Source: Xylanibacter ruminicola (GTDB taxonomy: Bacteria > Bacteroidota > Bacteroidia > Bacteroidales > Bacteroidaceae). Taken from it: a DNA stretch of 64,000 nucleotides. Under the pieces are notes generated by a model, which saw only the letters and a program-made list of their open reading frames with translations, did no database searches and was not told where the DNA came from. The stretch's first letter is position 1; each line of letters starts with the position of its first letter. Location of the stretch: positions 41,270 through 105,269 of the forward strand of contig SUYC01000005.1 of assembly GCA_015060625.1 (NCBI GenBank). The letters are read 5' to 3'. Shown one piece after another: positions 12,322-26,077 of the stretch. The position numbers and the translations under genes are program-made.

Positions 12322-13779
12322 CTACTTCTCAGGAATAACCTCGAGTGTGTGCTTCAGCAGCGTCCAGAATGGCTCTACGGTTGCTATCAGTGCACGCTCG
12401 GTAGTGGTGTGAGGCGACTTCATCGTTGGTCCGAAGCTCACTACATCCAGGTGTGGATACTTGCCCAGGATGATAGAGCACTCCAAACCGGCATGGTCAA
12501 CCTGGATAATACCGTCCTGACCAAACAGCGCCTTATACTCTTTGCAGAGCAGGTTCAGAATCTCGCTATCGGGGTTGGGATCCCAGCCGCCGTAGCTGCC
12601 AGCAGTCTCCACCTTCATACCTGCCATGTTAAAGCAGCTCTCCAAGGTTTTTACAATATAGTCCTTCATATCCTCACGACTTGAACGAGCCAGAATCTTC
12701 AGCGAAGCCTTACCCTCGCCAATGTTGATGATGGCCAGGTTGCTTGATGTCTCCACCACGTTAGGATAGCTGGGAATCATGCGGATCACACCATCGTGAC
12801 AGCCGTAGATGGCATTAATCAGGTTGTCCTGAATCTCTACAGGCACCTCCATCTTTGGCGTCTCCACTTCCTCGCAGAGCACCTCGATACCGCTCTCGAT
12901 ACCTTTGTACTCATCCTGGAAATCGTCCTGCCAGTCGGCAGCCAACTCCTGCAGGGCAGCTACATTCTCTTTGGGCAATGTGAGCACGGCCTCGGCCTTG
13001 AATGGGATGGCATTACGCATGTTGCCACCCTGCCAACTGGCCAGACGAGCCTCGCACTCTTCGATGGCCTCGCGAACGATACGAACCAGCAGCTTGTTGG
13101 CATTACCGCGACCCTCGTGAATCTCCAGGCCAGAGTGTCCGCCACGCAAGCCCTTGACAGTTACCTTTACAGCAGCATCGTCGGCTTCGGTCTCTACCTC
13201 TTTATAGTCCAGAGTGGCAGTTACGTCGATACCACCAGCGCTACCAATCACAAACTTTCCCCAGCACTCAGAGTCGAGGTTCAGCAGAATATCGCCATTC
13301 AGCTCGCCAGCAGGCAGAGCGTTGGCACCAAACATACCTGTCTCCTCGTCGGCAGTAATCAGCGCCTCGATAGGACCATGCTTCAAGGTCTTATCCTCCA
13401 TCACAGCCATGATGGCTGCTACGCCTAAGCCGTTGTCGGCACCCAGGGTAGTGCCCTTAGCCTTTACCCACTCACCATCAATCCATGGCTCAATAGGGTC
13501 GGTCTCAAAGTTATGAGTGCTCTCAGGTGTCTTCTGTGGTACCATATCCATGTGTGCCTGCAGAATCACGCCCTTTTTCTTCTCCATACCAGGCGAAGCG
13601 GGCTTGCGCATCACAATATTATCTGCAGGGTCCTTAAAGGCCTCTACACCTGCCTGCTTGGCAAAATCAAGCAGAAACTGTTGTACTTTCTCCAAATGTC
13701 CAGAAGGACGTGGAACCTGTGTCAATGCATAGAAATTCTTCCAAATGCACTCAGGGTTCAGATTCTTAATTTCACTCAT
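12322..13779 (-). CDS. pepD: Aminoacyl-histidine dipeptidase (M20)
   Basis: LQAHMDMVPQK, TTLGADNGLG, TADEETGM, LLNLDSE, GGHSGLEIH, HAGLEC, SFGPT...PHTTTE. Confidence 0.95.
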   Translation of the reverse strand: MSEIKNLNPECIWKNFYALTQVPRPSGHLEKVQQFLLDFAKQAGVEAFKDPADNIVMRKPASPGMEKKKGVILQAHMDMVPQKTPESTHNFETDPIEPWIDGEWVKAKGTTLGADNGLGVAAIMAVMEDKTLKHGPIEALITADEETGMFGANALPAGELNGDILLNLDSECWGKFVIGSAGGIDVTATLDYKEVETEADDAAVKVTVKGLRGGHSGLEIHEGRGNANKLLVRIVREAIEECEARLASWQGGNMRNAIPFKAEAVLTLPKENVAALQELAADWQDDFQDEYKGIESGIEVLCEEVETPKMEVPVEIQDNLINAIYGCHDGVIRMIPSYPNVVETSSNLAIINIGEGKASLKILARSSREDMKDYIVKTLESCFNMAGMKVETAGSYGGWDPNPDSEILNLLCKEYKALFGQDGIIQVDHAGLECSIILGKYPHLDVVSFGPTMKSPHTTTERALIATVEPFWTLLKHTLEVIPEK

Positions 13780-14827
13780 AGTTTTTTTGTTTATTTGGGT
13801 TAAAACGTTTCGTAAACATCAAGGCAGCCCAGGCATAGATTCCTAATGCAATCACCAGCATGGTCTGCACAGTATGAACAATCAGCACAAACCAGAGGGC
13901 ATGCTCATCAGCCACACCATAGAGAATCAGCATGGTCTTGATGGCAAAATGCCAGGGCCCGGCACCATTAGGCGTAGGCACGATAACGGCAAAGTTAGCC
14001 ACTACAAACGATACCAATGCGCAGCCGATACCTAAGTCCTTAGTAAAGTCGAAGCAGAAGAAGGTGAGGTAGTAATGCAGAAAATACATCACCCAGATGC
14101 CAATCGAGAAAAACAGATAAAGTGGCAGGTTGTGCACCCCCTTGAGCGAGAGCACACCTTCCCAGATGCCACCTAACGTCATCTTTACCTTATTATATAT
14201 AGAGAAGTTTTTCAGCAACAGATGCAGCAGTATCAGTACAGCCACTGCACAGATGGCTGTCACCACCCAACCCATTACCGAGAAACCACCTAATATTCTG
14301 TCGAGCGATGTACCTGTCTTGCGGAAGAAGGTGCCAAACACGCTTATCTCAACCAGCAGGATAATACCCGAATAGATCATCACTATCAGCGTATCCACAG
14401 CACGTTCTGTAACCACTGTTCCCAGTGCTTTCGAGAATGATATGCCGTCGTAGCGCTTCAGGATGGCGCATCGCGAAAACTCGCCGATACGAGGTATCAC
14501 CAAACTGGCCGCATAGCTGATGAATACTGCATGTATGCAGGTACTGGCCCTATTAATTGCAGGTGCTTCATCCTTCCTCCTTTCTCCTTCCTCCTTCCTC
14601 GTAAGAATCGGCTCCAGTGTCTGTTTCCATCGCCAACCGCGAAACATCTGTGCCAGGATTCCAAAGGGAAACGATAGCAACATCCAAGTCCAGTTCATTT
14701 CTTCGGTCAGCACACGACTGATAGTCGAAAAGTCTTCACCACGATACATCCACCACAAAATGGCACCGCCAAGTATAAAAGGCAGTACCACTTTAGCAAC
14801 GCTACTGATGATGTTTTTTAATTCCAT
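13772..14827 (-). CDS. Lysylphosphatidylglycerol-synthase TM / flippase-like domain protein (UPF0104)
   Basis: FRGWRWKQTLEP, SYAASLVIPRIGEFSRC, GTVVTERAVD, VPTPNGAGPWH, multiple TMs. Confidence 0.85.
   Translation of the reverse strand: MELKNIISSVAKVVLPFILGGAILWWMYRGEDFSTISRVLTEEMNWTWMLLSFPFGILAQMFRGWRWKQTLEPILTRKEEGERRKDEAPAINRASTCIHAVFISYAASLVIPRIGEFSRCAILKRYDGISFSKALGTVVTERAVDTLIVMIYSGIILLVEISVFGTFFRKTGTSLDRILGGFSVMGWVVTAICAVAVLILLHLLLKNFSIYNKVKMTLGGIWEGVLSLKGVHNLPLYLFFSIGIWVMYFLHYYLTFFCFDFTKDLGIGCALVSFVVANFAVIVPTPNGAGPWHFAIKTMLILYGVADEHALWFVLIVHTVQTMLVIALGIYAWAALMFTKRFNPNKQKNYE
14566..14600. repeat. Five tandem CTTCCTC-type heptamers inside the flippase-like CDS
   Basis: CTTCATC CTTCCTC CTTTCTC CTTCCTC CTTCCTC, read on the minus strand as RKEEGERRKDE. 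Confidence 0.85.
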
Positions 14828-14918
14828 GGGGGCAAAGGTACGAATAAACGAGTGAAATACAAAATAAATCCCTATTTATTTTTATTTCCGAGTGGAAGTA
14901 CCTTCGGCGAAGCCAAAG
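14825..14918 (-). repeat. Left arm of a 94-bp inverted repeat containing the flippase-gene promoter and start codon
   Basis: 8 mismatches to the reverse complement of 15228-15321. Carries TACCTTTG followed 5 nt later by ATG. Confidence 0.9.
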
Positions 14919-15064
14919 TACGAATAATAATTGATACGTGTCAAAGAAAGCTCACTTTTTTGGCTTTTTTCTACTATTTTCTTGGCTGTGTGCGATAACA
15001 GTCGTACCTTTGCAGCGGTTTTAAGGATAACAAATAAATAAAAGATTAGAGAAAGGAATTAATT

Positions 15065-15169
15065 ATGGTAACTTTAGAGACAAGTTTTTTATTAATGACC
15101 ATGGCTGCCTTCGCATTAGCTGTATCACTGGTAGTAACCGTTGCTGTTAATGTAGACAACAATAAGTAA
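15065..15169 (+). CDS. Small 34-aa hydrophobic peptide [34 protein letters not shown], not in the ORF track
   Basis: Has its own promoter (CTTG 14981-14984, 20 nt, TACCTTTG 15005-15012), an AT-rich upstream region, one TM segment and its own terminator. Confidence 0.6.
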
Positions 15170-15193
15170 TTGAACAAAAATTGAAAAATGGGG

Positions 15194-15223
15194 TCGCAGA
15201 TTTTCTAATCTGCGATTTTTTTT
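15194..15223 (+). terminator. Intrinsic terminator of the small ORF
   Basis: TCGCAGATT-TTCT-AATCTGCGA followed by T8. Confidence 0.8.
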
Positions 15224-15227
15224 GTAG

Positions 15228-15321
15228 CTTTGGCTTCGCCGAAGGTACTTCCGTTCGGAAATAAAAATAAATTCGGATTTATTTTGTATTTCGCTCACTT
15301 ATTCGTACCTTTGTCCCCATG
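15228..15321 (+). repeat. Right arm of the 94-bp inverted repeat containing the rsmA promoter and start codon
   Basis: CTTTGGCTTCGCCGAAGGTACTTCC...ATTCGTACCTTTGTCCCCATG. Confidence 0.9.
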
Positions 15322-16143
15322 AAACAAGTTCGACCCAAGAAAAATCTCGGTCAGCACTTTCTGACCGACCTGAATATCGCCAAGCGTATTGCCGATACCG
15401 TAGATGCCTGTCCCGACATTCCTGTACTGGAGGTTGGTCCTGGCATGGGTGTGATGACTCAATATCTCGTAGAGAAGCCCCGTCCCTTCAAGGTCGTCGA
15501 AATCGACCGCGAGAGTGTAGCCTATCTGCAGGAACATTTCCCTGAATTTACGAGTCCCCTTCCTCCTTCCTCCCTTCTCCTTCCTCGAGAAATCATCTCT
15601 GCTGATTTCTTGAAGATGGATCTTCGTGAGGTGTTTGATGGTCAGCAGTTTGTGCTCACCGGCAACTATCCTTACGATATCTCATCGCAGATTTTCTTCA
15701 AGATGCTCGACAATAAGGATCTGATTCCCTGTTGCACCGGTATGATTCAGCACGAGGTGGCAGTTCGCATGGCCTCACAGCCCGGCAACAAACAGTATGG
15801 CGTCTTGTCGGTGCTTATTCAGGCTTGGTATAATGTGGAGTATCTCTTCACTGTCGAGCCAGGCGTGTTCAATCCGCCTCCCAAGGTACAGAGTGCTGTT
15901 ATCCGCATGACGCGTAACGAGGTGACCAATCTGGGTTGCGACGAACAGTTGTTCCGTCGCGTGGTAAAAACCACTTTCAACCAGCGTCGCAAGATGCTGC
16001 GTGTTTCTCTTCGTCAGATTTTCGATGCCAATCATCCTGCCCCCGCAGGCTTCTTCGACGATGAGATAATGACCCGCCGCCCCGAGCAGCTCTCCATCCC
16101 CCAGTTCATCGAACTCACCAACAAAGTCGCATCAGCATTATAA
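15319..16143 (+). CDS. rsmA: 16S rRNA (A1518/A1519) dimethyltransferase KsgA/RsmA
   Basis: KKNLGQHFL, VLEVGPGMG, VVEIDR, GNYPYDISS, FNPPPKVQSAV, FNQRRKML. Confidence 0.97.
   Translation: MKQVRPKKNLGQHFLTDLNIAKRIADTVDACPDIPVLEVGPGMGVMTQYLVEKPRPFKVVEIDRESVAYLQEHFPEFTSPLPPSSLLLPREIISADFLKMDLREVFDGQQFVLTGNYPYDISSQIFFKMLDNKDLIPCCTGMIQHEVAVRMASQPGNKQYGVLSVLIQAWYNVEYLFTVEPGVFNPPPKVQSAVIRMTRNEVTNLGCDEQLFRRVVKTTFNQRRKMLRVSLRQIFDANHPAPAGFFDDEIMTRRPEQLSIPQFIELTNKVASAL
15559..15586. repeat. Four tandem CTTCCTC-type heptamers inside rsmA
   Basis: CTTCCTC CTTCCTC CCTTCTC CTTCCTC, translated within SPLPPSSLLLPRE. Confidence 0.85.
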
Positions 16144-16195
16144 CCCCGCTCGCATAAAGCTCGCTCCACCCGCCCTCGCTCTTTTGGGGGTGCGT

Positions 16196-16224
16196 GCCCC
16201 CAGCCGCGCGGCATACCCCGCGGT
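16196..16224. repeat. GC-rich REP-like hairpin element, copy 1
   Basis: GCCCCCAGCCGCGCGGCATACCCCGCGGT, preceded by GGGGGTGCGT. Near-identical to 20527-20556. Confidence 0.8.
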
Positions 16225-16320
16225 CCTTTTGGGTATTTTTACATCTAATAGTAACTTTTTCCCTTAAAGACTTGGTATTTTTAATTATATTGTTTATATT
16301 TGCAGCCGAAAAGCGAATTT

Positions 16321-16335
16321 AAACATTAAATGTTT
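16321..16335. promoter_or_regulatory. Palindromic operator candidate downstream of the abiE promoter
   Basis: AAACATT-A-AATGTTT, just downstream of a TATATTTG -7 box near 16295. Confidence 0.45.
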
Positions 16336-16355
16336 ATTTCTGTTAGTAGATTGTT

Positions 16356-17168
16356 ATGCGAACGGGTAGTTTACAGAGCTGGGTTGACCAGCAAATGATT
16401 CGAGGCAGGTACATCTTTACGAAGGAAGATGTGTTAGCACAAGGGCTATCGCAGGCGGATGATAGTCTGAATACGGCTTTGTCGAGGTTAGGTAAGAAGG
16501 GTGTGATTGTTTCTCCTTGGCAGAATTTCTATGTGGTGGTGCCTACGGAGTATCGGTTGAAGGGAAATGTGCCACCATCGCTTTATATCGACCATCTGAT
16601 GAAGTCTTTAGGTAGGGATTATTACGTATCTCTGCTGTCGGCTGCTGCGCTGAACGGCGCGGGGCATCAGCGGGCAATGGCGTTTCAGGTTACAGTGAAC
16701 GGAGCACCTATACACTCTGGAATAAAGAATGGAGTAAGACTTGATTTTACACTTCGCAACCCTCTCCCTATGATGTATGTGAAGCAGGTGAAGACTCAAA
16801 TGGGGTTCATAAATGTTTCGTTGCCTGAGTTAACGGCCCTTGATTTGGTGCTTAATGAGAACAAGGTTGGTGGTATTAATCGCGTTACAGAGGTGCTGAT
16901 AGAACTATCAGAAAACATGCATTTCGACGAATCCTTCACAGATCTTCTCACTTTCTTTAATGCACCCGTTATTCAGCGTCTGGGATATTTGCTTGATTTG
17001 ATTGAAGAGCATGAACTTGCCGATCGTCTGCTGATGCTTGCACAAAAGCAGAGTAAACTGTTTCGGAAAATCCGTCTGAAGCAGTCGAAGACTCAAACAG
17101 ACGATATGGTAATTGATAGTCGATGGAAGGTGATTGTTAATCAAGAAATAGAAACTGATGAAATATGA
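16356..17168 (+). CDS. abiEi: Type IV TA antitoxin, AbiEi family
   Basis: N-terminal wHTH, YYVSLLSAAALNGAGHQRAMAFQV, PELTALDLV, QRLGYLLD. ATGA overlap with the toxin. Confidence 0.85.
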   Translation: MRTGSLQSWVDQQMIRGRYIFTKEDVLAQGLSQADDSLNTALSRLGKKGVIVSPWQNFYVVVPTEYRLKGNVPPSLYIDHLMKSLGRDYYVSLLSAAALNGAGHQRAMAFQVTVNGAPIHSGIKNGVRLDFTLRNPLPMMYVKQVKTQMGFINVSLPELTALDLVLNENKVGGINRVTEVLIELSENMHFDESFTDLLTFFNAPVIQRLGYLLDLIEEHELADRLLMLAQKQSKLFRKIRLKQSKTQTDDMVIDSRWKVIVNQEIETDEI

Positions 17169-17968
17169 TACCAGAATACTTTATCCAAGAATGGAAGGAA
17201 ATGGCTCCTTGGACAGAGCCTTATATGGTGGAGCAAGATCTCATTATCTGCCGTGCGTTGATAAGTATCTTTAGCGATGAATTTCTCGCTTCACAATTAG
17301 CATTCCGTGGTGGCACAGCCCTGCATAAGCTTTACTTATCACCGCAGCCTCGCTATAGTGAGGATATCGACCTTGTGCAGATTAATCCTGGTCCTATCAA
17401 ACCTATTATGTATAGGTTAGGAGAAGTGCTCAGTTGGCTACCCGATAGAGTGACCAAGCAGAAACGATACAACAATACAATGTTGTTTAGGGTTGAATCG
17501 GAGATAGCTCCTGTGATTCAGATTCGACTAAAGGTTGAAATCAACTGCTTTGAACATTTTAACGTGCTGGGGTTGACTAAAGTTCCTTTTAGTATGAAGA
17601 ACTCGTGGTTTACAGGTAAGGCTGAATTGACAACCTATCACTTCGAGGAATTACTTGGAACCAAACTGCGTGCGCTTTATCAACGAAAGAAGGGACGCGA
17701 CCTGTTTGACCTTTATTGTGCATTGACCAAGCATGATGTGGACGTGGATAAGGTTATGCTATGCTATAAGAAGTATATGGAATTTGTGGTAGATAAGGCA
17801 CCGTCGTACAAGCAGTTTGTGAATAATATGGAGGAGAAAATGCAAGATCCGGAGTTCTTGGAGGACACAACGCTGCTTCTCCGCCCTGAGATAAAATTCT
17901 CACCCTCAGAAGCCTATCCGATAGTTTATAAGATTTTTATTGATAAGATGGAGGGTAAGCGTGATTAA
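17165..17968 (+). CDS. abiEii: Type IV TA toxin, AbiEii-family nucleotidyltransferase
   Basis: VEQDLII, AFRGGTALHKLY...RYSEDIDL, LKVEIN, KLRALYQRKKGRDLFDL. Confidence 0.9.
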   Translation: MIPEYFIQEWKEMAPWTEPYMVEQDLIICRALISIFSDEFLASQLAFRGGTALHKLYLSPQPRYSEDIDLVQINPGPIKPIMYRLGEVLSWLPDRVTKQKRYNNTMLFRVESEIAPVIQIRLKVEINCFEHFNVLGLTKVPFSMKNSWFTGKAELTTYHFEELLGTKLRALYQRKKGRDLFDLYCALTKHDVDVDKVMLCYKKYMEFVVDKAPSYKQFVNNMEEKMQDPEFLEDTTLLLRPEIKFSPSEAYPIVYKIFIDKMEGKRD

Positions 17969-18281
17969 TAATCAAATCTTGAATGCTATAAGAGACAAGG
18001 CTAGTCAGATTGTGCCAAAGGGTACTACAGTTATTCTCTTTGGCTCAAGAGCACGTGGTGATGCTCGTGAAGATTCTGATTGGGATGTGCTTATCCTGCT
18101 TGATAAAGATCACATAACCTCTCAGGATATTGATGATTATTCTTGTCCATTACGCGAATTGGGTTGGGACTATAATCAGTGCATTAATGCGATCTTATAT
18201 ACAAAACGTGATTGGGATAGCAGTATTATCAGTCCTTTCCGCGAAAACGTAACTGAAGATGGAATAATATTATTGGGTTAA
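17961..18281 (+). CDS. Minimal nucleotidyltransferase (MNT) domain protein
   Basis: ILFGSRARGDAREDSDWDVLILL. A GTG start overlaps the abiEii stop. Confidence 0.85.
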   Translation: MINNQILNAIRDKASQIVPKGTTVILFGSRARGDAREDSDWDVLILLDKDHITSQDIDDYSCPLRELGWDYNQCINAILYTKRDWDSSIISPFRENVTEDGIILLG

Positions 18282-18333
18282 GTGGCTAAAAACTACACTT
18301 TTCAAACGATAAACTACACTTTTAAAATTGTGG

Positions 18334-18424
18334 CGTTATTATGTAAAATATCGCGTTCTGAAACGTTATTTCTTGTAAAATATCGTATTCTGATGCTATG
18401 TTTTTATGTAAAATATCGCGTTTT
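18334..18424. repeat. Three degenerate 32-33 bp tandem units with core TGTAAAATATCG
   Basis: Cores at 18342, 18374 and 18407, ending just upstream of TATCTTTG (18439-18446). Confidence 0.75.
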
Positions 18425-18485
18425 ACGTTTTTTCTTCGTATCTTTGTACCCAAAATAGGTTTCATAGATTGATAAATCAAGGAAC

Positions 18486-19733
18486 ATGGCAAGACTTATA
18501 GTTAGAAATGTAGGACCAATAAAGGATGTGGATATTGAGCTAAGGAAGGTCAATGTCTTCATGGGACCTCAAGGTTGTGGCAAGAGCACTCTTGCTAAAA
18601 TCATCAGTTTTTGTTCCTGGCTTGAGAAAGATAGTGATGCTACGATGAAAGCCGAGACGGGTGGTCTTGTGTCATTAATGATGAAGTTCCATAGAATGGA
18701 AGGCTATTTCCAGGATGAGTCAGAACTGGCATACATTGGAGATGATGTGGCCTTTTTCTATCATTTCCCTGAACCATTCCCTCTCAATTGGAAATCTGAC
18801 GATTTTGCCACATCTCACTTTCGCCAAGATGAGTTTATTTTCCATAAGGCTCAGAGAAGTGTCAACCCTAAGGTGATATATATTCCTGCTGAGAGAAATT
18901 TCGTGTCTGTTGTACCTAATCTTCAAAAATACGCGGAGCAAGATGATTCTCTTCAGAGTTTTGTGAACGACTGGTTCGTTGCTAAAAAGGCATATACAGA
19001 AAAACAGCCGCTGAAGATAGAAATGTTGGGTATAGAGTATTATTACAGTTCTAAGACTGATAGCGACATTGTGGTTATGGCTGGACAAAATGTTAGGCTT
19101 AGCCAGTCAAGTAGCGGTTTTCAGTCAGTTGTGCCATTAATGGCTTTGCTGAGCTATCTGTCATCAACAATCTATGAAGAAAACAAACCTTTTTCGCCAG
19201 CAGAAAACGAACAGATGAGAGAGATTCTTTCGCGTGTGTCGAGTGAAGCCAAAGATGGAATGGAGCAGAAACTGATAGAACGCATAAAAGGATTTCTTCA
19301 GGGAAAAGTATATACTCATACCCAGTTTGTCGTTGAAGAACCTGAGCAGAATCTGTTCCCAAATACGCAGTGCCAACTGATGTATCATCTGCTAAGTTGT
19401 TTGAATCATGGCAAAGCACACCGTGCTGTAATAACAACACACAGTCCCTATATACTTTATGCTCTTAATAATTGCTTATTGGCAAATATTGTCCGGGAAG
19501 AAATTCTTAAAGAAGAAAATGCAGAGTTGAACATAAATTGTTTAGATGTTGTTATAGCTCCTGGCGATGTGGGCGTGTGGGAAATAGAGAATGGAAGCAT
19601 GAAAACATACGGTGAGGAATCTGCCAACAGTACTATACAAGATAAAGATGGACTGATAAGACAGAACTACTTCAATAGTGTGATGGGCGACGTGATGCGT
19701 GATTTTAATAATCTGCTGATGTATAAGGACTAA
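18486..19733 (+). CDS. ABC-type (AAA_15/AAA_21-like) ATPase
   Basis: IRNVGPI-like N-terminus, Walker A GPQGCGKST, YIPAERN, signature LSQSSSGFQS, Walker B/D-loop VVEEPEQNLFP, H-loop ITTHSPY. Confidence 0.9.
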   Translation: MARLIVRNVGPIKDVDIELRKVNVFMGPQGCGKSTLAKIISFCSWLEKDSDATMKAETGGLVSLMMKFHRMEGYFQDESELAYIGDDVAFFYHFPEPFPLNWKSDDFATSHFRQDEFIFHKAQRSVNPKVIYIPAERNFVSVVPNLQKYAEQDDSLQSFVNDWFVAKKAYTEKQPLKIEMLGIEYYYSSKTDSDIVVMAGQNVRLSQSSSGFQSVVPLMALLSYLSSTIYEENKPFSPAENEQMREILSRVSSEAKDGMEQKLIERIKGFLQGKVYTHTQFVVEEPEQNLFPNTQCQLMYHLLSCLNHGKAHRAVITTHSPYILYALNNCLLANIVREEILKEENAELNINCLDVVIAPGDVGVWEIENGSMKTYGEESANSTIQDKDGLIRQNYFNSVMGDVMRDFNNLLMYKD

Positions 19734-19741
19734 AATCTGAG

Positions 19742-20332
19742 ATGGAAAAGATATTCAGAGAAACTGAGCGATTTGAGTCCGACTTCTATATTGGAGACTA
19801 TACGCGATATTCAGAGAGTTATCCGACTTGCGGAAAGACGGGTGTTGTAATGTCAAACATGCCGTTTGCAGATATCAAAACACTTCATTTCGAAAACAAA
19901 CAGCATATACCTGTATTGGCTGTCAACTTTGAGAAGAATTTGAGCTATTTTAGGGGCAATGATCACGAACTTGTTTCGAATTGTGAATGTATGCTTGTTT
20001 CAGACAAGGCTCGTAAGAAGGGGTGGCTGGTGTTGGCAGAGTTGAAATATTGTGGTGGAGATCCAAGAACGGTGAATGATAATTTTGAGAAAGCTCTTTC
20101 ACAGGTAAAGGACACTTTTCTATATTTGAGAGATATAAAACACTTGTTTGGTGAGTCCGACTACCGGTATATATGGGTTGTTTCTCTTCCAGAGCATGAC
20201 GAAATGATACCATTCAGCCAGTTCTATCCATCACCCGAACGTATTCTGACTTACAAAGAGCAGCTTCATGTTAACCTGATATGTTCGAATACAATTGAGA
20301 TTCGCACTCATCAACATGTAAAGGTAGAGTAA
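19742..20332 (+). CDS. Hypothetical protein, putative PD-(D/E)xK-like nuclease partner of the ATPase
   Basis: CECMLV...LVLAELKY...KALSQVKDT pattern. Starts 8 nt after the ATPase stop. Confidence 0.6.
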   Translation: MEKIFRETERFESDFYIGDYTRYSESYPTCGKTGVVMSNMPFADIKTLHFENKQHIPVLAVNFEKNLSYFRGNDHELVSNCECMLVSDKARKKGWLVLAELKYCGGDPRTVNDNFEKALSQVKDTFLYLRDIKHLFGESDYRYIWVVSLPEHDEMIPFSQFYPSPERILTYKEQLHVNLICSNTIEIRTHQHVKVE

Positions 20333-20385
20333 AAATCTTAATCATAGATAACAATAAAACCTTACATACTCTTATTCTTAGTTAA

Positions 20386-20547
20386 AGTACGTCGGGGAAC
20401 GACAACAACGGTGGCAGTGGTGGTGATACGCAGAACTTCCCATCGGTTGGCGACACCTATCAAGGATGCCACGTGCTGGCCGTGACGGTGGAAGATGATG
20501 GGCAGTCGGCTGAGTTGGGGCTGCTCGCCCCCAGCCGCGCGGCATAA
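20386..20547 (+). pseudogene. Possible start-less 3' remnant of a surface-protein gene
   Basis: Open frame STSGNDNNGGSGGDTQNFPSVGDTYQGCHVLAVTVEDDGQSAELGLL..., preceded by an in-frame stop and GC-richer than its flanks. Confidence 0.25.
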
Positions 20548-20556
20548 CCCCGCGGT
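20527..20556. repeat. GC-rich REP-like hairpin element, copy 2
   Basis: GCCCCCAGCCGCGCGGCATAACCCCGCGGT, same orientation as 16196-16224 with one extra A. Confidence 0.8.
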
Positions 20557-20570
20557 GTTTTAGCATGGTA

Positions 20571-20708
20571 TTAGATATGTTCAATAATGTCGCGGTTGAA
20601 ACTACGGAGTGATTTCAACTCGCCAACAAACTCATCGTCTGTCATACCATCATCACCCCAGATGCCATAATATTTCTTAGCTGATATACGCTTAGGAGTT
20701 GTAACCAT
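20571..20708 (-). CDS. Small antitoxin-like protein MVTTPKRISAKKYYGIWGDDGMTDDEFVGELKSLRSFNRDIIEHI
   Basis: 45 aa directly downstream of a TATCTTTG promoter. The GIW..D..D.EF..EL...R pattern resembles small antitoxins found before PIN toxins. Confidence 0.4.
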   Translation of the reverse strand: MVTTPKRISAKKYYGIWGDDGMTDDEFVGELKSLRSFNRDIIEHI

Positions 20709-20725
20709 AACTTTACTATTTTTGC

Positions 20726-20764
20726 TGCAAAGATAGGATATATCTTTGAAACTTGCAAGTTTTT
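20726..20764 (-). promoter_or_regulatory. Promoter with palindrome AAACTTGCAAGTTT, duplicated at 21970-22008
   Basis: TGCAAAGATAGGATATATCTTTGAAACTTGCAAGTTTTT versus TGCAAAGATAGAATATATTTTTGAAACTTGCAAGCTTTT (3 mismatches). Confidence 0.75.
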
Positions 20765-20897
20765 GGTTCACTTCTTTTTGTAAAGAAGGTGAACAACTCA
20801 AGAAAGCACTAGCACTATTTGGGCTTACAAATTAAGTAAGCTACCCATAAATGTTGCAAAGGAATTGCATTTGCCTGATGCCATTAGATTAGAGAAA

Positions 20898-21947
20898 TCA
20901 TCCTTTGTGAGTATTGACATGATTGGTGATAAAGTTAGAAGAAAGGATATCATAATTGCTAAGACCCGTGCGAGCAAACTTAGCAAACAGTTCCTGGTGG
21001 GTTTGGCTATTAAGACTGGTAACCACGCTACCCGTACGTTGAAGGATATTCCACAAATCCAAATCAACCGTATCAAGTAGGAAACTATCATTCGAAGTTA
21101 CTATCAGCTGTATCGACTTGGCCTTACAATAGGAGAACACTATCTTACCCAACTTTGTAGATCGGCGATAGTCCAAACCTTCGCCCATATCATCAATCAT
21201 CAGGCAGCGGGCTCCCTTCAGTGTTGAGCTGTATATCATATAGAGCAATACACTGAACACACGGAACATTCCGTTTGAGAGTTCGTAGAACTCCATCGGC
21301 TTCTCGATGCCTGTTTCGTATATCAACAGCCACTTACCACCAGAAGCATTCTCAACTACCTCAATCTTGTCAATCTGGTAGCCAAGCTCCTTAATATACT
21401 CTATCAATACGTTTTGCTGATTCTTTATCTGCTCATACATCTCAGGGATAAGAGGCTCGGTAGAGAGTATATAAGGACTTAACGACTTTAACGAAGCCGT
21501 GATATTACTAAACACATAAAGCGAAGTATGCTCAGCCCATAAAATAATCTCCTCGATTTCTGGATAACGCATGGTATCTCTACGAGCCTGTATTAACAGC
21601 TTGTTTGCAGGTGGATTTACCGATTCACCATACATCTCGGCGGTAGATGCATTTCTGACAATCTTAGACTGTCCATCAATCAAGAGACTTTCTGACTTGA
21701 TTAATCCGTCAGACAGCTCGAATGCATATTCAATCTGATGGCTATTTGACAATCTAAGCACACAAGAGAAATCCTTTTTGGCCAATTCTGAGTCGTTCTT
21801 AATAAAGCGAATGACATTACCCAAGGCCTCTAAAGTCCTTGACTTACCTACAGAATTCATACCAACAATAAGGTTCTGGTGATGAAGTGTAAGCTTTTCC
21901 AGTTGCCAACCGGAAGATTCTCTATATGAAAATTCTGTCAGAATCAT
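20898..21947 (-). CDS. ABC-type (AAA_21-like) ATPase, start MILTEF at 21947
   Basis: Walker A VGMNSVGKSR, signature ELSNGMFR, Walker B LMIDDMGEGLD, and IVTSND at the H-loop position. Confidence 0.85.
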   Translation of the reverse strand: MILTEFSYRESSGWQLEKLTLHHQNLIVGMNSVGKSRTLEALGNVIRFIKNDSELAKKDFSCVLRLSNSHQIEYAFELSDGLIKSESLLIDGQSKIVRNASTAEMYGESVNPPANKLLIQARRDTMRYPEIEEIILWAEHTSLYVFSNITASLKSLSPYILSTEPLIPEMYEQIKNQQNVLIEYIKELGYQIDKIEVVENASGGKWLLIYETGIEKPMEFYELSNGMFRVFSVLLYMIYSSTLKGARCLMIDDMGEGLDYRRSTKLGKIVFSYCKAKSIQLIVTSNDSFLLDTVDLDLWNILQRTGSVVTSLNSQTHQELFAKFARTGLSNYDILSSNFITNHVNTHKG

Positions 21948-22051
21948 AATGTATATACTATTATTCGCATGCAAAGATAGAATATATTTTTGAAACTTGC
22001 AAGCTTTTTGAAAAGAAGATGAACAAAAATTAGATGTTAATTTGCATTTTA

Positions 22052-22083
22052 TTTGGCTATTTCAGATAAAAGTTGTATCTTTG
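22052..22083 (+). promoter_or_regulatory. Sigma-A promoter of the upxY/polysaccharide transcript
   Basis: TTTG (22052-22055), 20 nt, TATCTTTG (22076-22083). Implies a 5' leader of about 375 nt. Confidence 0.8.
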
Positions 22084-22089
22084 CCCCCG

Positions 22090-22420
22090 AATTCTCGTCA
22101 TGTCCACGCCGGATTCAAGGCAATCGTGCCAAGAAGTGGAAGGGTGGGTAGCGAGTTTTCGTACATATTAAAGGCGTTTACAAGCGCTACGTTTGAGACT
22201 CTTCGGAATCTGGAAAATTCAAAATTGGAATCTTGAACATAGCAACGGTAGATGCTCTCGGGATGTGTTTATACGCGTCCCCAATCCTCTGAATGTGGGG
22301 GTAGGGTGACTTGTATTCATATCGGCGTGGGCTCTGACGTTGTCTGTTCAATTCCAATGGGCAATTCCAGAGCCTCGAAGAGTGGGACGGGCAACAGCAC
22401 GATTCCACGCTTTTTTTATG
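22090..22420 (+). ncRNA. Candidate structured 5' leader RNA of upxY
   Basis: Nested long-range complementarities: 22122-29 with 22397-404, 22199-214 with 22366-382, 22225-247 with 22338-357. Ends in T7. Confidence 0.4.
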
Positions 22421-22464
22421 TCTTGCCGCTAAGATTTTGGCGCGCATAAAAACAGAAGGCCGAT

Positions 22465-23157
22465 ATGGATGCATTGATTAATGCTAACAAGGCAACATCA
22501 CCAATAACCCGCTGTGGACTTACCTCCATGGCCATCCCCGAAGCTATAGATGCACAAAAAGGGGCGTCGGTAGAATACGCTCCTGACCCTGATAAGCGCT
22601 GGTATGTGCTCCGTGCCTCCTATGGTCGTGAGATATTAGCCGAACAGCTACTCATCCAGAGCCATGTCTATGCCTACGTTCCCAAACGCTATACCTATAT
22701 CGAGGTGAAGGGCCGCCCCAAAAAGGTGTTGCAATGCCTCATTGCCAATATCGTGTTTGCCTATCTCACACCCAAGCAAGCTATGATGTTCGTTCGTAAT
22801 AACGATCCTGATGAGCCATCGCCAGCCCCGCAATTGTCAGAATTTATTAGCTTCTACTATAATCATTTTGTCGAGGGTGAAAACTGGCGAAATCCGCCGC
22901 TTACTATCCCTGAGCACGAGATGCTCAACTTTATTTGTGCCACCTGCTCGAACGACGAGAATCTGCTGATGCTCCAGGGAGGCGACTTTCATTACAAAAC
23001 CGACGATGAAGTCGAGGTTATCTGTGGTCAGTTCAAAGGTGTTCGTGGTCGAGTCATCCGAGCCCGCGGTCAGCAACGAGTGCTTGTCGCTCTTACCGCC
23101 CTCAATTGCTTCTGTGCCACCGCTTATATTCCGACCCCGTTCCTCCAAAAAATATAA
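22465..23157 (+). CDS. upxY: UpxY-family (NusG-like) transcription antiterminator
   Basis: NGN domain WYVLRASYGRE...YVPKRY...LIANIVFAY and KOW EVEVICGQFKGVRGRVIR. First gene of a polysaccharide locus. Confidence 0.88.
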   Translation: MDALINANKATSPITRCGLTSMAIPEAIDAQKGASVEYAPDPDKRWYVLRASYGREILAEQLLIQSHVYAYVPKRYTYIEVKGRPKKVLQCLIANIVFAYLTPKQAMMFVRNNDPDEPSPAPQLSEFISFYYNHFVEGENWRNPPLTIPEHEMLNFICATCSNDENLLMLQGGDFHYKTDDEVEVICGQFKGVRGRVIRARGQQRVLVALTALNCFCATAYIPTPFLQKI

Positions 23158-23171
23158 CTCCCAAAATACCG

Positions 23172-23227
23172 TGAGTTAATTCAAAACGTCTAATGAGTTA
23201 ATTCATTGCCCCTTTTGAATTAATTCA
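23172..23227. repeat. Three palindromic TGA(G/A)TTAATTCA sites at a 22-bp period
   Basis: Copies at 23172, 23194 and 23216. Confidence 0.75.
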
Positions 23228-23256
23228 CCGCACTTCGAGGCCTCTCGATTACGATG

Positions 23257-23318
23257 AAAAATCAAATTGATTTTGGAGCAAAAGTAACTTGATTTTGAGT
23301 AATAATCAACTTGATTTT
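23257..23318. repeat. Three AATCAA(C/A)TTGATTTT-type sites at a 22-bp period
   Basis: TTGATTTT ends at 23274, 23296 and 23318. Confidence 0.75.
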
Positions 23319-23338
23319 CGATGAAAACCAATAAGGAA

Positions 23339-23438
23339 AATATCCTCATCCCTTCTTAACCCCCTCTCTATATAGCCCCCATCCTCTCTCTAAAGAGAGG
23401 TGGGGCTATAGTAAGAGGGGTGTAAGGGATAGGGATAT
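23339..23438. repeat. Long imperfect hairpin with ~45-50 bp arms
   Basis: ATATCC...CCCCTCT...TATAGCCCC...CCTCTC / GAGAGG.TGGGGCTATA...AGAGGGG...GGATAT. Confidence 0.7.
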
Positions 23439-23708
23439 GCCTTACGATTGGGCTATGGCATGGCGAGAAAAGGTCGAATGTAATTCAACCGGTTATTATC
23501 ATGGGATTGTACCATCATCGTAATCTTATTGGTTCGCCAAGTGCATTCGTGAGAGTTGTATGATATACTGCCACATGGCAGGTATATAAAAACGTTTTAA
23601 AGGGGGCAGACTCTTATCAGGATTTCTCATAAATAAAGGTTCAATAACCTGGTAATCCTGCCCCTTTTTCAAAGTAAATTAGTAGAATAAGAAATAATAA
23701 ACAAAATT

Positions 23709-24965
23709 ATGGAAAGAAGAAAAGATAGAATCCTTCTATGCCTGTGCCATCTTTCTGGCAACGAGCAGAAGTTTGTAAACGAAGCATTTGATACCAACTG
23801 GGTTGTGCCCCTTGGCCCTAATGTAAATGGATTCGAGAAAGACCTCGAAGAGTTCGTTGGTCAAAATAAGAGGGTGGTAGCCCTCTCTGCTGGAACAGCA
23901 GCTGTGCATCTTGCATTGCTGAACTGTGGTGTAGGACCTGGTGATGAAGTGCTGGTACAGAGCTTTACGTTCTGCGCATCTAGCCACCCTATTACATATC
24001 TTGGTGCAACGCCTGTTTTCATTGATTCTGAGAAAGAGACATGGAACATGGATCCAGAGTTGTTGGAGAAGGCTATTATCGACCGTAAGGAGAAAACAGG
24101 TAAGTACCCCAAGGCTATCGTGCCGGTAGCACTCTACGGTATGCCGTACAAGATTGACCAGATTATGGCTATCGCCAACAAGTATGGCATTCCTGTGGTA
24201 GAGGATGCTGCTGAGGGCTTTGGCTCTAAGTTCAACGGTCAGGTGCTGGGTACATTTGGTAAATATGGTGTATTAAGCTTTAACGGTAACAAGATGATTA
24301 CTACCTCTGGCGGTGGTGCATTGATTACTGAGAACGAGGACGAGTGGCGAGAGATTATGATGTATGCCACTCAGTACCGTGAAAGCTATCCGTACTACCA
24401 GCACGAGAAGATTGGCTATAACTACCGTATGAGTAATATCTGTGCAGGTATTGGTCGTGGTCAGATGACCATATTAGATGAGCATATTGCCCATCACAAG
24501 AAGGTACAGAAGATGTACGAAGAGCTGCTGAAGGACGTGAAGGGTGTTACCGTACATAGCCAGCCTGAAACAGGAGAGTACGACTCTAACTACTGGCTTT
24601 GCACCATGACCATTAATCCTGACGTGAAGGTTAAGGGGCAGGAGAATGCGTATAAGCAGATTGTTACAGGTGCCGTAGGAGGTGCTGCTGGTGTGATTCA
24701 TGCTGCAGATTCAGCAACAACAGACTGTCAGCCTAATGATAATGTGGAGGCCATGCGTATGGGCTTGGATGCCCTGAATATTGAGAGCCGCCCACTTTGG
24801 AAGCCTATGCATAAGCAGCCTGTTTATAAGAATGCACCTGCATATGTAAATGGTGTCAGCGAAGACCTGTTCAAGATAGGTATGTGCTTACCTGCAGGCC
24901 CATATGTTACAGAGGATGACGTGCATTTCATCTGTGATGCTATCAAGAGTTTGATTAACGAATAA
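23709..24965 (+). CDS. DegT/DnrJ/EryC1/StrS (PglE-like) NDP-4-keto-6-deoxy-sugar aminotransferase
   Basis: EAFDTNWVVPLGPNVNGFE, SAGTAAVHLAL, EDAAE, PLP Lys in SFNGNKMITTSGGG, GYNYRMSN, ESRPLWKPMH. Confidence 0.92.
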   Translation: MERRKDRILLCLCHLSGNEQKFVNEAFDTNWVVPLGPNVNGFEKDLEEFVGQNKRVVALSAGTAAVHLALLNCGVGPGDEVLVQSFTFCASSHPITYLGATPVFIDSEKETWNMDPELLEKAIIDRKEKTGKYPKAIVPVALYGMPYKIDQIMAIANKYGIPVVEDAAEGFGSKFNGQVLGTFGKYGVLSFNGNKMITTSGGGALITENEDEWREIMMYATQYRESYPYYQHEKIGYNYRMSNICAGIGRGQMTILDEHIAHHKKVQKMYEELLKDVKGVTVHSQPETGEYDSNYWLCTMTINPDVKVKGQENAYKQIVTGAVGGAAGVIHAADSATTDCQPNDNVEAMRMGLDALNIESRPLWKPMHKQPVYKNAPAYVNGVSEDLFKIGMCLPAGPYVTEDDVHFICDAIKSLINE

Positions 24966-24983
24966 AAAACGCTGTAATTGGCT

Positions 24984-26077
24984 GTGAATAAGAAAAATCC
25001 CCCCCCCATTTAAGGGTTGAAAGGCAGTCCAACTTTGAGGCTTTAAGACTGCTCTCCATGCTGATGGTACTTAATCTCCATAGTTTTTGGGGATTTAACT
25101 ATGGCAGTGGTATTTGGCAGGCTCTTGACTTCTTTAGGGAAAGCACTTCTATCTGTGCCGTAGACTGTTTCATATTGATTTCAGGCTATTTTTGCATCAA
25201 GTGGAAGTTCCGCAGTTTCTTCAATCTCATATTTCAGATTTTCTTCTATAGCGTAGGGCTCTATCTCGTTGTAGTCGGCCTTGGAATTGTTGATTGGAGC
25301 TTAAAAGAATTCATCATCAGGTTCGGATGTCTGTTTACAAGATCGTGGGGCTTTGCCATCACGTTTGTCCTACTTTACTTCTGTTCACCTGTGCTGAATG
25401 CTTTTGCAGATAGGTCATCGTCTCGTGAGTTGCTTCTATACATTATTGTATTTTTCATAGTCATCAATTTCGTGAGTATTCCTCGTTTCGACCTGTTTAC
25501 CTATGCACTGGTTTACCTCGTCGGTCGATGGTTGAGAAAAATGAATGTAGCAGATCTGAAGTTTCCTTCTGGAAAGGCATATTGGATAGTGACAGTTTTG
25601 ATATTTGTTATCGTCTATGTCCTTTGCTTTTGCGTGTTGCATTTTACGAAGTCTAACGTTCTCAAATGGCCTTTTGGTATCATTGGCTATAATTATGCGG
25701 CACCGTTGGTTATACTACAGGCAGTATCCCTTTTTATGTTCTTTGCACGACTGAGGTTCAAAAGTAACTTTATCAACTGGTGTGCAGCATCAAGTTTTGC
25801 AATCTATCTCATTCACATGCATCCGACCATCAAACAAATAGGATATTATGCATTTACTAAGTCTTTATATGAACAGCCTCCCTTTCTGCATGTTGTTGCT
25901 CTCGTTGCATTTATCTTAGCAGTGTTTTTCGCTTGTATATTCATAGATAAAATCAGAATAGCAATATCTAATGTATGCTTTCTTATGGTAGAATCATTAC
26001 TGAAGCATGTACCAGTAAAAATATTTAAGATAGAAACCTATTTGCCATCATCTATGGCAGTATTGATTTCAAAATAA
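24984..26077 (+). CDS. Acyltransferase family 3 (OafA-like) membrane O-acyltransferase, frameshifted at the C9 tract; intact frame runs 24992-26077
   Basis: The conserved family start ERQSNFEALRLLSMLMVLNLH lies upstream of the first in-frame ATG (25058). Also VDCFILISGYF and SSFAIYLIH. Confidence 0.8.
24999..25007 (+). repeat. C9 homopolymer that separates the acyltransferase start codon from its reading frame
   Basis: GTG AAT AAG AAA AAT C9 ATT TAA stops at 25013. C10 or C7 would read through into RQSNFEALRLLSM. Confidence 0.8.

Follow-up and report, generated by a model that had tools for sequence, protein, structure and literature searches.

Correia elements of Neisseria are promoter-bearing miniature inverted-repeat transposable elements (MITEs) with terminal inverted repeats of about 26 bp and a TA target duplication. 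The REP/BIME and ERIC repeats and the pneumococcal BOX/RUP repeats lie mostly 3' of genes or without fixed orientation, and they have no full promoter end; REP/BIME units also occur between convergent genes and are associated with RAYT transposases. Putative mobile promoters (PMPs) are non-coding sequences of high mutual similarity (80% or more over 50 nt or more) that stand upstream of unrelated genes (PMC3575422); they occur within and between genomes, and the mechanism of their mobilisation has not been identified (Matus-Garcia, Nijveen & van Passel 2012; PMC3575422). In invertons, a promoter lies between short repeats on which a site-specific invertase acts, as at capsule, fimbrial and resistance loci (PMC12632263, PMC8748976). 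Here, we analyzed an inverted repeat between two divergent genes of Xylanibacter ruminicola, rsmA/ksgA and the gene for an LPG_synthase_TM ('flippase-like') membrane protein, within a stretch of 64,000 nucleotides (GenBank assembly GCA_015060625.1, contig SUYC01000005.1, positions 41,270 to 105,269) that is referred to as the window. We conclude that the arms of this repeat are probably units of a dispersed, modular promoter family which the two genes acquired independently, and that the inverted layout is incidental.

The two arms (14825-14918 and 15228-15321) agree at all but 8 of 94 positions (91.5% identity), and the pair was recovered by blastn with E = 4.5e-31, in agreement with the original prediction of a 94-bp inverted repeat. 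Without gaps, the repeat extends to 14822-14931 and 15215-15324 with 95 of 110 positions identical. This similarity is far above chance, and blastn found no further copy of an arm in the 64 kb of the window, which has a G+C content of 44.9%. Both arms terminate in TTCGTACCTTTG-(C/T)CCCC-ATG and both carry CTTTGGCTTCGCCGAAG at their inner ends. A -7 box, TACCTTTG, stands 5 nt upstream of each ATG and in either arm a TTTG lies 19 nt 5' of it as the -33 element; the inner-end sequence and the distance of the -7 box from the two start codons had likewise been predicted, and the coordinates agree (Table 1). At 91.5% over 94 nt before rsmA and the flippase-like gene, the arms come under the operational definition of PMPs. 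All related DNA originated from rumen or gut Prevotella.

Alleles of the two sites were collected from contigs with the neighbouring M20 peptidase gene, from two pattern scans and from contigs of sequencing runs. Filled and empty alleles were present at both orthologous sites, among strains about 2% apart as well as in outgroups. The window has a unit on either side, and L001 and L002 combine the left (flippase-side) unit with a shortened right (rsmA-side) arm that consists of the core promoter only. L056 and L067, members of a sister lineage with about 13% divergence in the flippase gene, have a left unit and an empty right site. The opposite state was found in X25, a contig of 445 nt with a right unit and an empty left site (80-nt skip from 14837 to 14918), and both sites are empty in L005, L006 and the contig X36 ('organism A'). 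In L020, which is about 24% divergent, the left site is empty with a different native promoter and the right site holds a tandem array, the last unit of which is cut by the contig end. Altogether, the left unit was missing from L003 to L006 and from the X36 and X25 contigs. Strains of the species cluster differed by 9-16 substitutions per 700 nt with star-like distances (about 2% apart), and the arm-bearing strains did not group together. The gain and loss of the two units are independent of each other. The left unit is probably old and was later lost from some strains, since the outgroup shares it, and the right unit is polymorphic and was gained within the species. The right arm of the window has 95% identity with units of L056 and 93% with those of L024 versus 91.5% with its own left arm. 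We also considered an origin of the pair by local inverted duplication, which was unsupported as the nearest relatives of the right arm are units of other species. Several assemblies break exactly at the arms, where the contigs L004, L008, L009, L020 and L056 end and L003 has an N-gap, indicating that the repeat family fragments rumen metagenome assemblies at promoters.

The original prediction had also proposed a composite or invertible cassette. In a phase-variable inverton of this kind, the 94-110 bp arms would allow either a recombinase or RecA to flip the enclosed 283 bp together with a small gene. Invertible promoters are well known in Bacteroidales (PMC12632263, PMC8748976), and the locus resembles them in being intergenic Bacteroidota DNA with TAnnTTTG promoters and an inverted repeat around a few hundred base pairs, here a 94-nt repeat of 91.5% identity around 283-309 bp; the length of the arms makes homologous recombination physically possible. 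However, the arms are individually dispensable and every combination of presence and absence exists. The predicted promoters face outward and lie within the long arms (14833-14863 and 15283-15313), and a flip would leave the flanking genes unchanged. The inner 283 bp carry only the promoter of the small gene and had a single orientation relative to both genes in all assemblies, which represent four lineages and among which only the window-type strain has both arms. A domain search of the open reading frames (ORFs) from about 5.2 to 26 kb of the window detected no recombinase within about 9 kb, although a distant global invertase is still conceivable. Four DNA runs, in the form of assembled contigs, which drop rare variants, showed no strand-change joints. 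Two defining features of invertons, a promoter inside the segment and a conserved repeat pair with a nearby recombinase, are lacking here. We consider an invertible cassette extremely unlikely; the 94-bp inverted repeat probably arose incidentally from two insertions and does not serve phase variation.

Comparison of empty and filled sites located the junctions of the units. On the left, the empty site reads CAATTA-TTATTCGTACCTTTG-TCGGC-ATG and the filled site of L001 reads CAATTA-TTATTCGTACCTTTG-(GCTTCGCC...CTCGT-TTATTCGTACCTTTG)-CCCCC-ATG, with the unit in parentheses. The corresponding right sites are TTTTTTTT-GTA(A/T)ATTTG-CACCC-ATG and TTTTTTTT-GTAGCTTTG-(GCTTCGCC...TTCGTACCTTTG)-TCCCC-ATG. 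Each unit was placed directly 3' of a pre-existing -7 box and carries its own -7 box at its end; as this box again closes with TTTG, all alleles share a distance of 5 nt to the ATG. Start codons and 5-nt spacing are already present in the arm-less alleles and are native to the genes, so that the repeat does not supply start codons as had been proposed. In the window, relics of the older -7 regions remain 5' of the units. TTATTCGTACCTTTG is still intact in L001 where the window has the left relic, and native alleles have GTAAATTTG or GTATATTTG in place of the right relic GTAGCTTTG. On each side of the junctions, 2-4 bases differ between empty and filled alleles (TCGGC versus CCCCC on the left, GTAAATTTG...CACCC versus GTAGCTTTG...TCCCC on the right), which argues against a clean cut-and-paste insertion with target duplication.

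The arms belong to a large family. A 21-mer from the distal part of the unit, GAAGGTACTTCCNNTCGGAAA, was found in 51 stretches of one-genome-per-species contigs; nearly all of these matches came from rumen Prevotella or Prevotellaceae metagenome-assembled genomes (MAGs) and 2 of the 51 are due to chance. The core 22-mer CGCTCACTTATTCGTACCTTTG matched at least 120 stretches in metagenome contigs, and the metagenome part of the family counts rests on these listed matches. Neither 21-mer nor 22-mer was present in 2.9 million viral contigs. Copies stand before dozens of genes that are unrelated to one another, in a total of about 40 species of rumen Prevotellaceae, and the promoter-donating dispersed repeat of the original prediction was thus supported. 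A unit consists of a small palindrome (GRC-loop-GYC), a distal box CGAAGGTACTTCCGYTCGGAAA (also written GAAGGTACTTCCGYTCGGAAA), an A-rich/T-rich hairpin of variable sequence and length with the -33 TTTG within its 3' arm, and a near-invariant core TTTCGCTCRCTTAWTCGTACCTTTG that terminates in a Bacteroidota -7 box. Unit lengths fall into classes of 65, 72-79 and 84-86 nt (81 nt at this locus). The spacer of 19-20 nt is conserved nearly base for base in more than 200 copies, and the distal box was recognisable at 55 of 139 core-seeded sites and degenerate at many more, among the matches listed. Full units before other genes in other species have 82-95% identity over about 82 nt, and copies inside one genome are diverged and not near-identical.

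Units also occur in tandem. Among 184 arrays, 152 contained a single core, 26 two, 5 three and one four, at a background density of about 15 arrays per Mb. Approximately one third of the neighbouring units within arrays have at least 90% identity (up to 100%), indicating recent tandem duplication, while the remainder are heterologous. The depth of a sheep gut metagenome was about 20-fold higher over the arm's core part than over the remainder, and many joints ran backwards, connecting a unit's end with the beginning of another unit. The PMPs are a catalogue based on positions -150 to -50 and consist mostly of pair families (PMC3575422); the Prevotella family, in contrast, comprises hundreds of copies that are built from defined modules, form tandem arrays, have covarying hairpins and join the flanking DNA exactly at the -7 box. 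We found no description of the repeat family in the literature, where the motif strings gave only chance primer matches. The family is apparently an undescribed example of promoter propagation. The twin arrangement in itself is nothing unusual. Family units were also seen in MAG contigs labelled as Clostridia (L025 and L027, Acutalibacteraceae; L038, Clostridium sp. CAG:217), one of them preceding a tRNA-Arg gene; the promoters there are of the Bacteroidota type, and these contigs are probably Prevotella DNA that was mis-binned into Clostridia MAGs.

The orientation of the family relative to genes was determined for 125 non-redundant arrays and ORFs of at least 80 aa. A co-oriented ORF started downstream within 300 nt in 122 of the 125 arrays and within 60 nt in 104, with a median distance of 25 nt. 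In the opposite direction, which served as control, the counts were 69 and 13 and the median was 131 nt. At 12 nt or less the numbers were 31 (all at 4-12 nt) and 3, respectively. Two arrays sit 5' of tRNA-Pro and tRNA-Arg genes. The REP/BIME, ERIC and BOX/RUP sequences are likewise small palindromic or modular intergenic repeats, sometimes tandem, with maintained hairpins and a possible effect on expression; the Prevotella family differs from them in its position 5' of co-oriented genes and in its complete -33/-7 promoter end. The downstream genes are not paralogous and encode, besides RsmA and LPG_synthase_TM, about 35 further unrelated families. They include proteins of translation (GlyRS, ArgRS, CysRS, ValRS, IF-3, bL25, CCA-adding enzyme and two ABC-F proteins), enzymes of biosynthesis (PanC, AroB, FabD, a FabG-like reductase, PurF, PurL, MetK, SpeA and NadB) and others such as PhoB, a MATE pump, an EptA-like transferase, OadA, a SufT-like protein, OlsH, an acetylxylan esterase, a TonB-dependent receptor and an S8 protease.

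Since many of these targets are related to growth (the four aminoacyl-tRNA synthetases, IF-3, bL25, CCA-adding enzyme, RsmA, tRNAs, PurF, PurL, FabD and MetK), the similarity could be the signature of a non-mobile regulon, in which an operator or activator site together with an optimal promoter was selected before housekeeping genes. The distal box lies about 45-65 nt 5' of the -7 box, a typical position for an activator site, and the unit before FabD is retained in three or four species. On the other hand, the 19-20 nt spacer is nearly invariant in the more than 200 copies, and the S. copri (Segatella copri) promoter motifs comprise the -7 and -33 boxes only (10.1101/2024.04.05.588293). The exact 22-mer, common as it is in chromosomes, did not occur in the 2.9 million viral contigs. 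Strains about 2% apart differ in whether they have a unit at a given locus, and the identity of tandem copies reaches 100%. Furthermore, the distal box is kept only at the minority of core-seeded sites given above, and targets such as the esterase, the TonB-dependent receptor, the protease and the MATE pump are not housekeeping genes. We regard a regulon as quite unlikely.

The Bacteroides -7 consensus is TANNTTTGY (PMC12632263). The box TACCTTTG(Y) fits this consensus, and the arrangement of -33 TTTG, 19-nt spacer and -7 box is a complete match. Promoter motifs derived from start sites of S. copri contain -7 and -33 boxes only and leaderless mRNAs are rare in this organism, about 35 per strain (10.1101/2024.04.05.588293). 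Because motifs and leaders differ in S. copri, the conservation of the spacer and the many near-leaderless arrangements are traits of the repeat family and not of Prevotellaceae at large. Leaderless mRNAs from both arms are plausible from the position of the predicted boxes. RNA runs, in the form of assembled Logan contigs, gave fragmentary coverage and no usable 5' ends, and one run includes the whole intergenic region.

Two hairpins were analyzed. In the first, H1, an upstream -7 box pairs with the start of the unit (GTACCTTTG-RC...GY-CGAAGGTAC); in the window, the left relic forms its 5' arm and CGAAGGTAC of the unit is the partner. When pairs were counted with this named structure, 84.9% of the cells in an alignment of 66 sequences were paired, compared with 33-52% when the partner columns were slid. 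Fifty-three cells had changed on both sides, a number reached by none of 500 shuffles, and at pair 18-30 there are 32 sequences with AU and 28 with GC. A separate analysis of the spacer was concordant with the covariation of H1. The second, the A/T hairpin H2, was counted within fixed-length classes and is present in every copy at -5 to -20 kcal/mol; its variable positions show A-T, T-A and G-C exchanges, i.e. covariation. With -9.4 kcal/mol on the top and -9.9 kcal/mol on the bottom strand, H2 has no strand bias. This equal stability suits a palindrome at the DNA level or a bidirectional terminator better than an RNA of the sense strand. The whole unit is pseudo-palindromic, the bottom strand reading TTTG-17 nt-TACCTTCG as a degenerate mirror promoter. 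RNAalifold on a MAFFT alignment missed both hairpins because loop lengths vary, and it proposed an alternative stem, YCGA...UCGG, that is mutually exclusive with H1. Inspection showed no helix register in which the Y of CCGYTCGG could pair with the R of CTCRC, and the apparent Y/R correlation, if real, is probably lineage structure.

The array units could also be small RNAs or attenuators which start at the preceding -7 box, have the distal box as 5' region and end at the A/T hairpin. The layout of promoter, 65-86 nt, hairpin with A-tract, stem and U-tract, and next promoter would fit such a function, and the mutual exclusion of H1 and the alternative hairpin is attenuator-like. We nevertheless judge it very unlikely. 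Arrays with a single core, the large majority, have no second family core upstream as a driver, and the upstream -7 boxes at this locus are decayed (TACTTTGG, TAGCTTTG). The hairpins are weak, A/U-rich and equally stable on both strands, and an Rfam scan of 13500-16500 at E <= 1 yielded no match.

The compensatory changes that maintain H1 and H2, together with the missing strand bias of H2 as expected for DNA-level structure, could also point to non-autonomous transposable elements, either MITE-like or recognised by their hairpins in the manner of IS200/IS605 or REP derivatives, that home to TAnnTTTG, insert directly 3' of it and carry a TAnnTTTG of their own at the end. Orthologous sites are polymorphic for their presence, the units come in discrete size classes (65, about 75 and about 86 nt), heterologous units stand beside existing promoters, and the ends form an imperfect inverted repeat of 9 nt, CGAAGGTAC...GTACCTTTG, although these ends are themselves -7-box sequences. 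As dispersed repeats of about 100 nt with inverted ends, outward promoters, strain polymorphism and rewiring of neighbouring genes, the units resemble Correia elements. They differ from the latter in the shortness of the inverted ends, in tandem stacking, in strict orientation to the gene start and in the missing clean target duplication: at the left site, the 15-nt TTATTCGTACCTTTG occurs on both sides but the next bases differ, and at the right site the flanks differ on both sides of the unit. Neither a transposase nor a longer element with the same ends was detected in 1.3 Mb of family-containing DNA, in which the interval from distal box to core was at most 179 nt. In addition, copies within a genome are diverged instead of near-identical, and tandem duplication by slippage between cores of 15-25 nt accounts for many arrays with no need of a transposase. 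We therefore hold transposition for unlikely. A more specific and likewise doubtful idea is a promoter-homing element, a hairpin-bearing single-stranded DNA cassette that would insert 3' of a host TAnnTTTG by pairing CGAAGGTAC with that box. If this were true, the core promoter would be both target and payload, and a gene would receive a stronger, insulated promoter with an identical TTTG end and an undisturbed distance to the start codon even if its mRNA is leaderless.

Given these findings, we favour independent acquisition of units of a promoter family. A unit of 65-86 nt would end in a complete Bacteroidota primary-sigma promoter, with the -33 TTTG, a spacer of 19-20 nt and TACCTTTG(Y); the flippase-like gene appears to have received one such unit immediately 3' of its former -7 box, and rsmA another one at the corresponding place. 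If the -7 boxes of the arms are active, the start sites would lie a few bases 3' of TACCTTTG(Y) and the leader would be 0-3 nt long, as judged from consensus and position. The mRNAs would then be leaderless or nearly so, as they probably were before the acquisition. More speculatively, the A/T palindrome may serve for insulation or in the way of an UP element. The units probably spread via tandem duplication and recombination or template switching between the conserved cores of 15-25 nt, as suggested by tandem copies without differences, by heterologous arrays and by the untidy junctions. Several points weigh against this interpretation. Use of the promoters and leaderless status are derived from consensus and position, and the strong conservation seen in spacer and distal box may be due in part to the binding of a factor, beyond common descent. 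Both arms belong to one hairpin subfamily, which is also present on the rsmA side of L020, and local copying from one side to the other is still conceivable. Finally, the junctions are untidy and do not look like those of clean insertions.

In the gut of livestock, Prevotella of the rumen belong to the most abundant bacteria, and genetic tools exist for only a few of them. The unit would offer a ready-made, apparently portable strong-promoter module for these organisms. Replacement of promoters between strains about 2% apart also makes regulatory rewiring without gene transfer open to study at defined loci. On the practical side, the family breaks assemblies at the arms and misleads gene callers. 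On the empty-site contigs, RsmA was called as a protein of 293 aa (L005, 221-1102; L006, 2798-3679) that begins 19 aa upstream of the MKQVRPKK start, probably a mis-call resulting from a missing in-frame stop.

The features of the locus are compiled in Table 1. The flippase-like gene has the same start in L056, L067 and L020. The RsmA N-terminus MKQVRPKK is kept in the orthologues of L146 and L152, which belong to other species; there, a unit from a different subfamily precedes the same start codon by 7 nt, as would be expected of a portable promoter. An exact-protein look-up found neither the RsmA nor the flippase-like protein on record. The 34-aa peptide encoded between the arms is identical at 34 of 34 positions in L020 although the DNA there is only 85.5% identical, which indicates a real coding gene; it matched no Pfam or NCBIfam family. 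A sigma-70 promoter scan recovered the terminator of this small gene, and it is uninformative for promoters here as it searches for the wrong promoter type.

Table 1. Features of the intergenic region and its flanking genes (window coordinates)
Feature	Position	Strand	Details
LPG_synthase_TM ('flippase-like') membrane protein gene	13772..14827	(-)	Pfam PF03706, E = 8.7e-31
Left (flippase-side) unit, 81 nt	14833..14913	(-)	GCTTCGC palindrome first on minus strand
Left-unit distal box	14905->14885	(-)	
Left-unit A/T hairpin	14888->14854	(-)	-33 TTTG 14863->14860; then 19-nt spacer, -7 box TACCTTTG 14840->14833
Relic of older -7 region 5' of left unit	14914..14927	(-)	TTATTCGTA-CTTTG, one C lost
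Small gene between arms	15005..15223	(+)	own TACCTTTG box 15005-15012
Small-gene ORF, 34 aa	15065-15169	(+)	hydrophobic
Small-gene terminator	hairpin 15190-15219	(+)	hairpin and T run
Relic of -7-like box 5' of right unit	15224..15232	(+)	GTAGCTTTG; 5' arm of hairpin H1
Right (rsmA-side) unit, 81 nt	15233..15313	(+)	GCTTCGC palindrome first
Right-unit distal box	15241-15261	(+)	
Right-unit A/T hairpin	15258-15292	(+)	-33 TTTG 15283-15286; then 19-nt spacer, -7 box TACCTTTG 15306-15313
rsmA/ksgA (16S rRNA adenine dimethyltransferase) gene	15319..16143	(+)	Pfam PF00398, E = 4.3e-48

Both flanking genes contain a second repeat, a polypurine/polypyrimidine motif of 30-34 nt (CCTTCCTCCTTTCTCCTTCCTCCTTCC and variants), at 14571-14601 and 15555-15587 of the window. 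It lies in frame and in the same plus-strand orientation in both genes, and accounts for 11 extra aa in RsmA and about 13 in the flippase-like protein; the orthologues of the sister species (L146, L152 and L067) are devoid of these residues. The motif was confined to this species cluster and occurred in none of about 170 other rumen loci. In L001 (4512-4982), and also in L002, L003 and L008, an extra gene for a 122-aa protein of PF05635 (23S_rRNA_IVP, bAvd-like four-helix) is present between the flippase-like and M20 peptidase genes with inverted copies of the polypurine motif on both sides. The window, with the junction near 13772-13779, has neither this gene nor its two motif copies.

Downstream of rsmA, an AbiEi/AbiEii toxin-antitoxin pair (16356-17968) is followed by two AAA_15/AAA_21 ATPase genes (18486-19733 and 20898-21974), and the region 16356-21974 looks like a small defence island. 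Its content is strain-dependent, with AbiEi plus a short NTP_transf_2 gene and a PIN gene in L001 and with other genes in L006. In the adjoining region 22465-26077, a NusG-like (UpxY-type) gene precedes DegT aminotransferase and acyltransferase genes, an arrangement that resembles the beginning of a capsular polysaccharide locus. Invertible promoters are frequent at capsular polysaccharide loci of Bacteroidales, and several TAnnTTTG boxes occur on both strands at about 21980-22460, upstream of the NusG-like gene.

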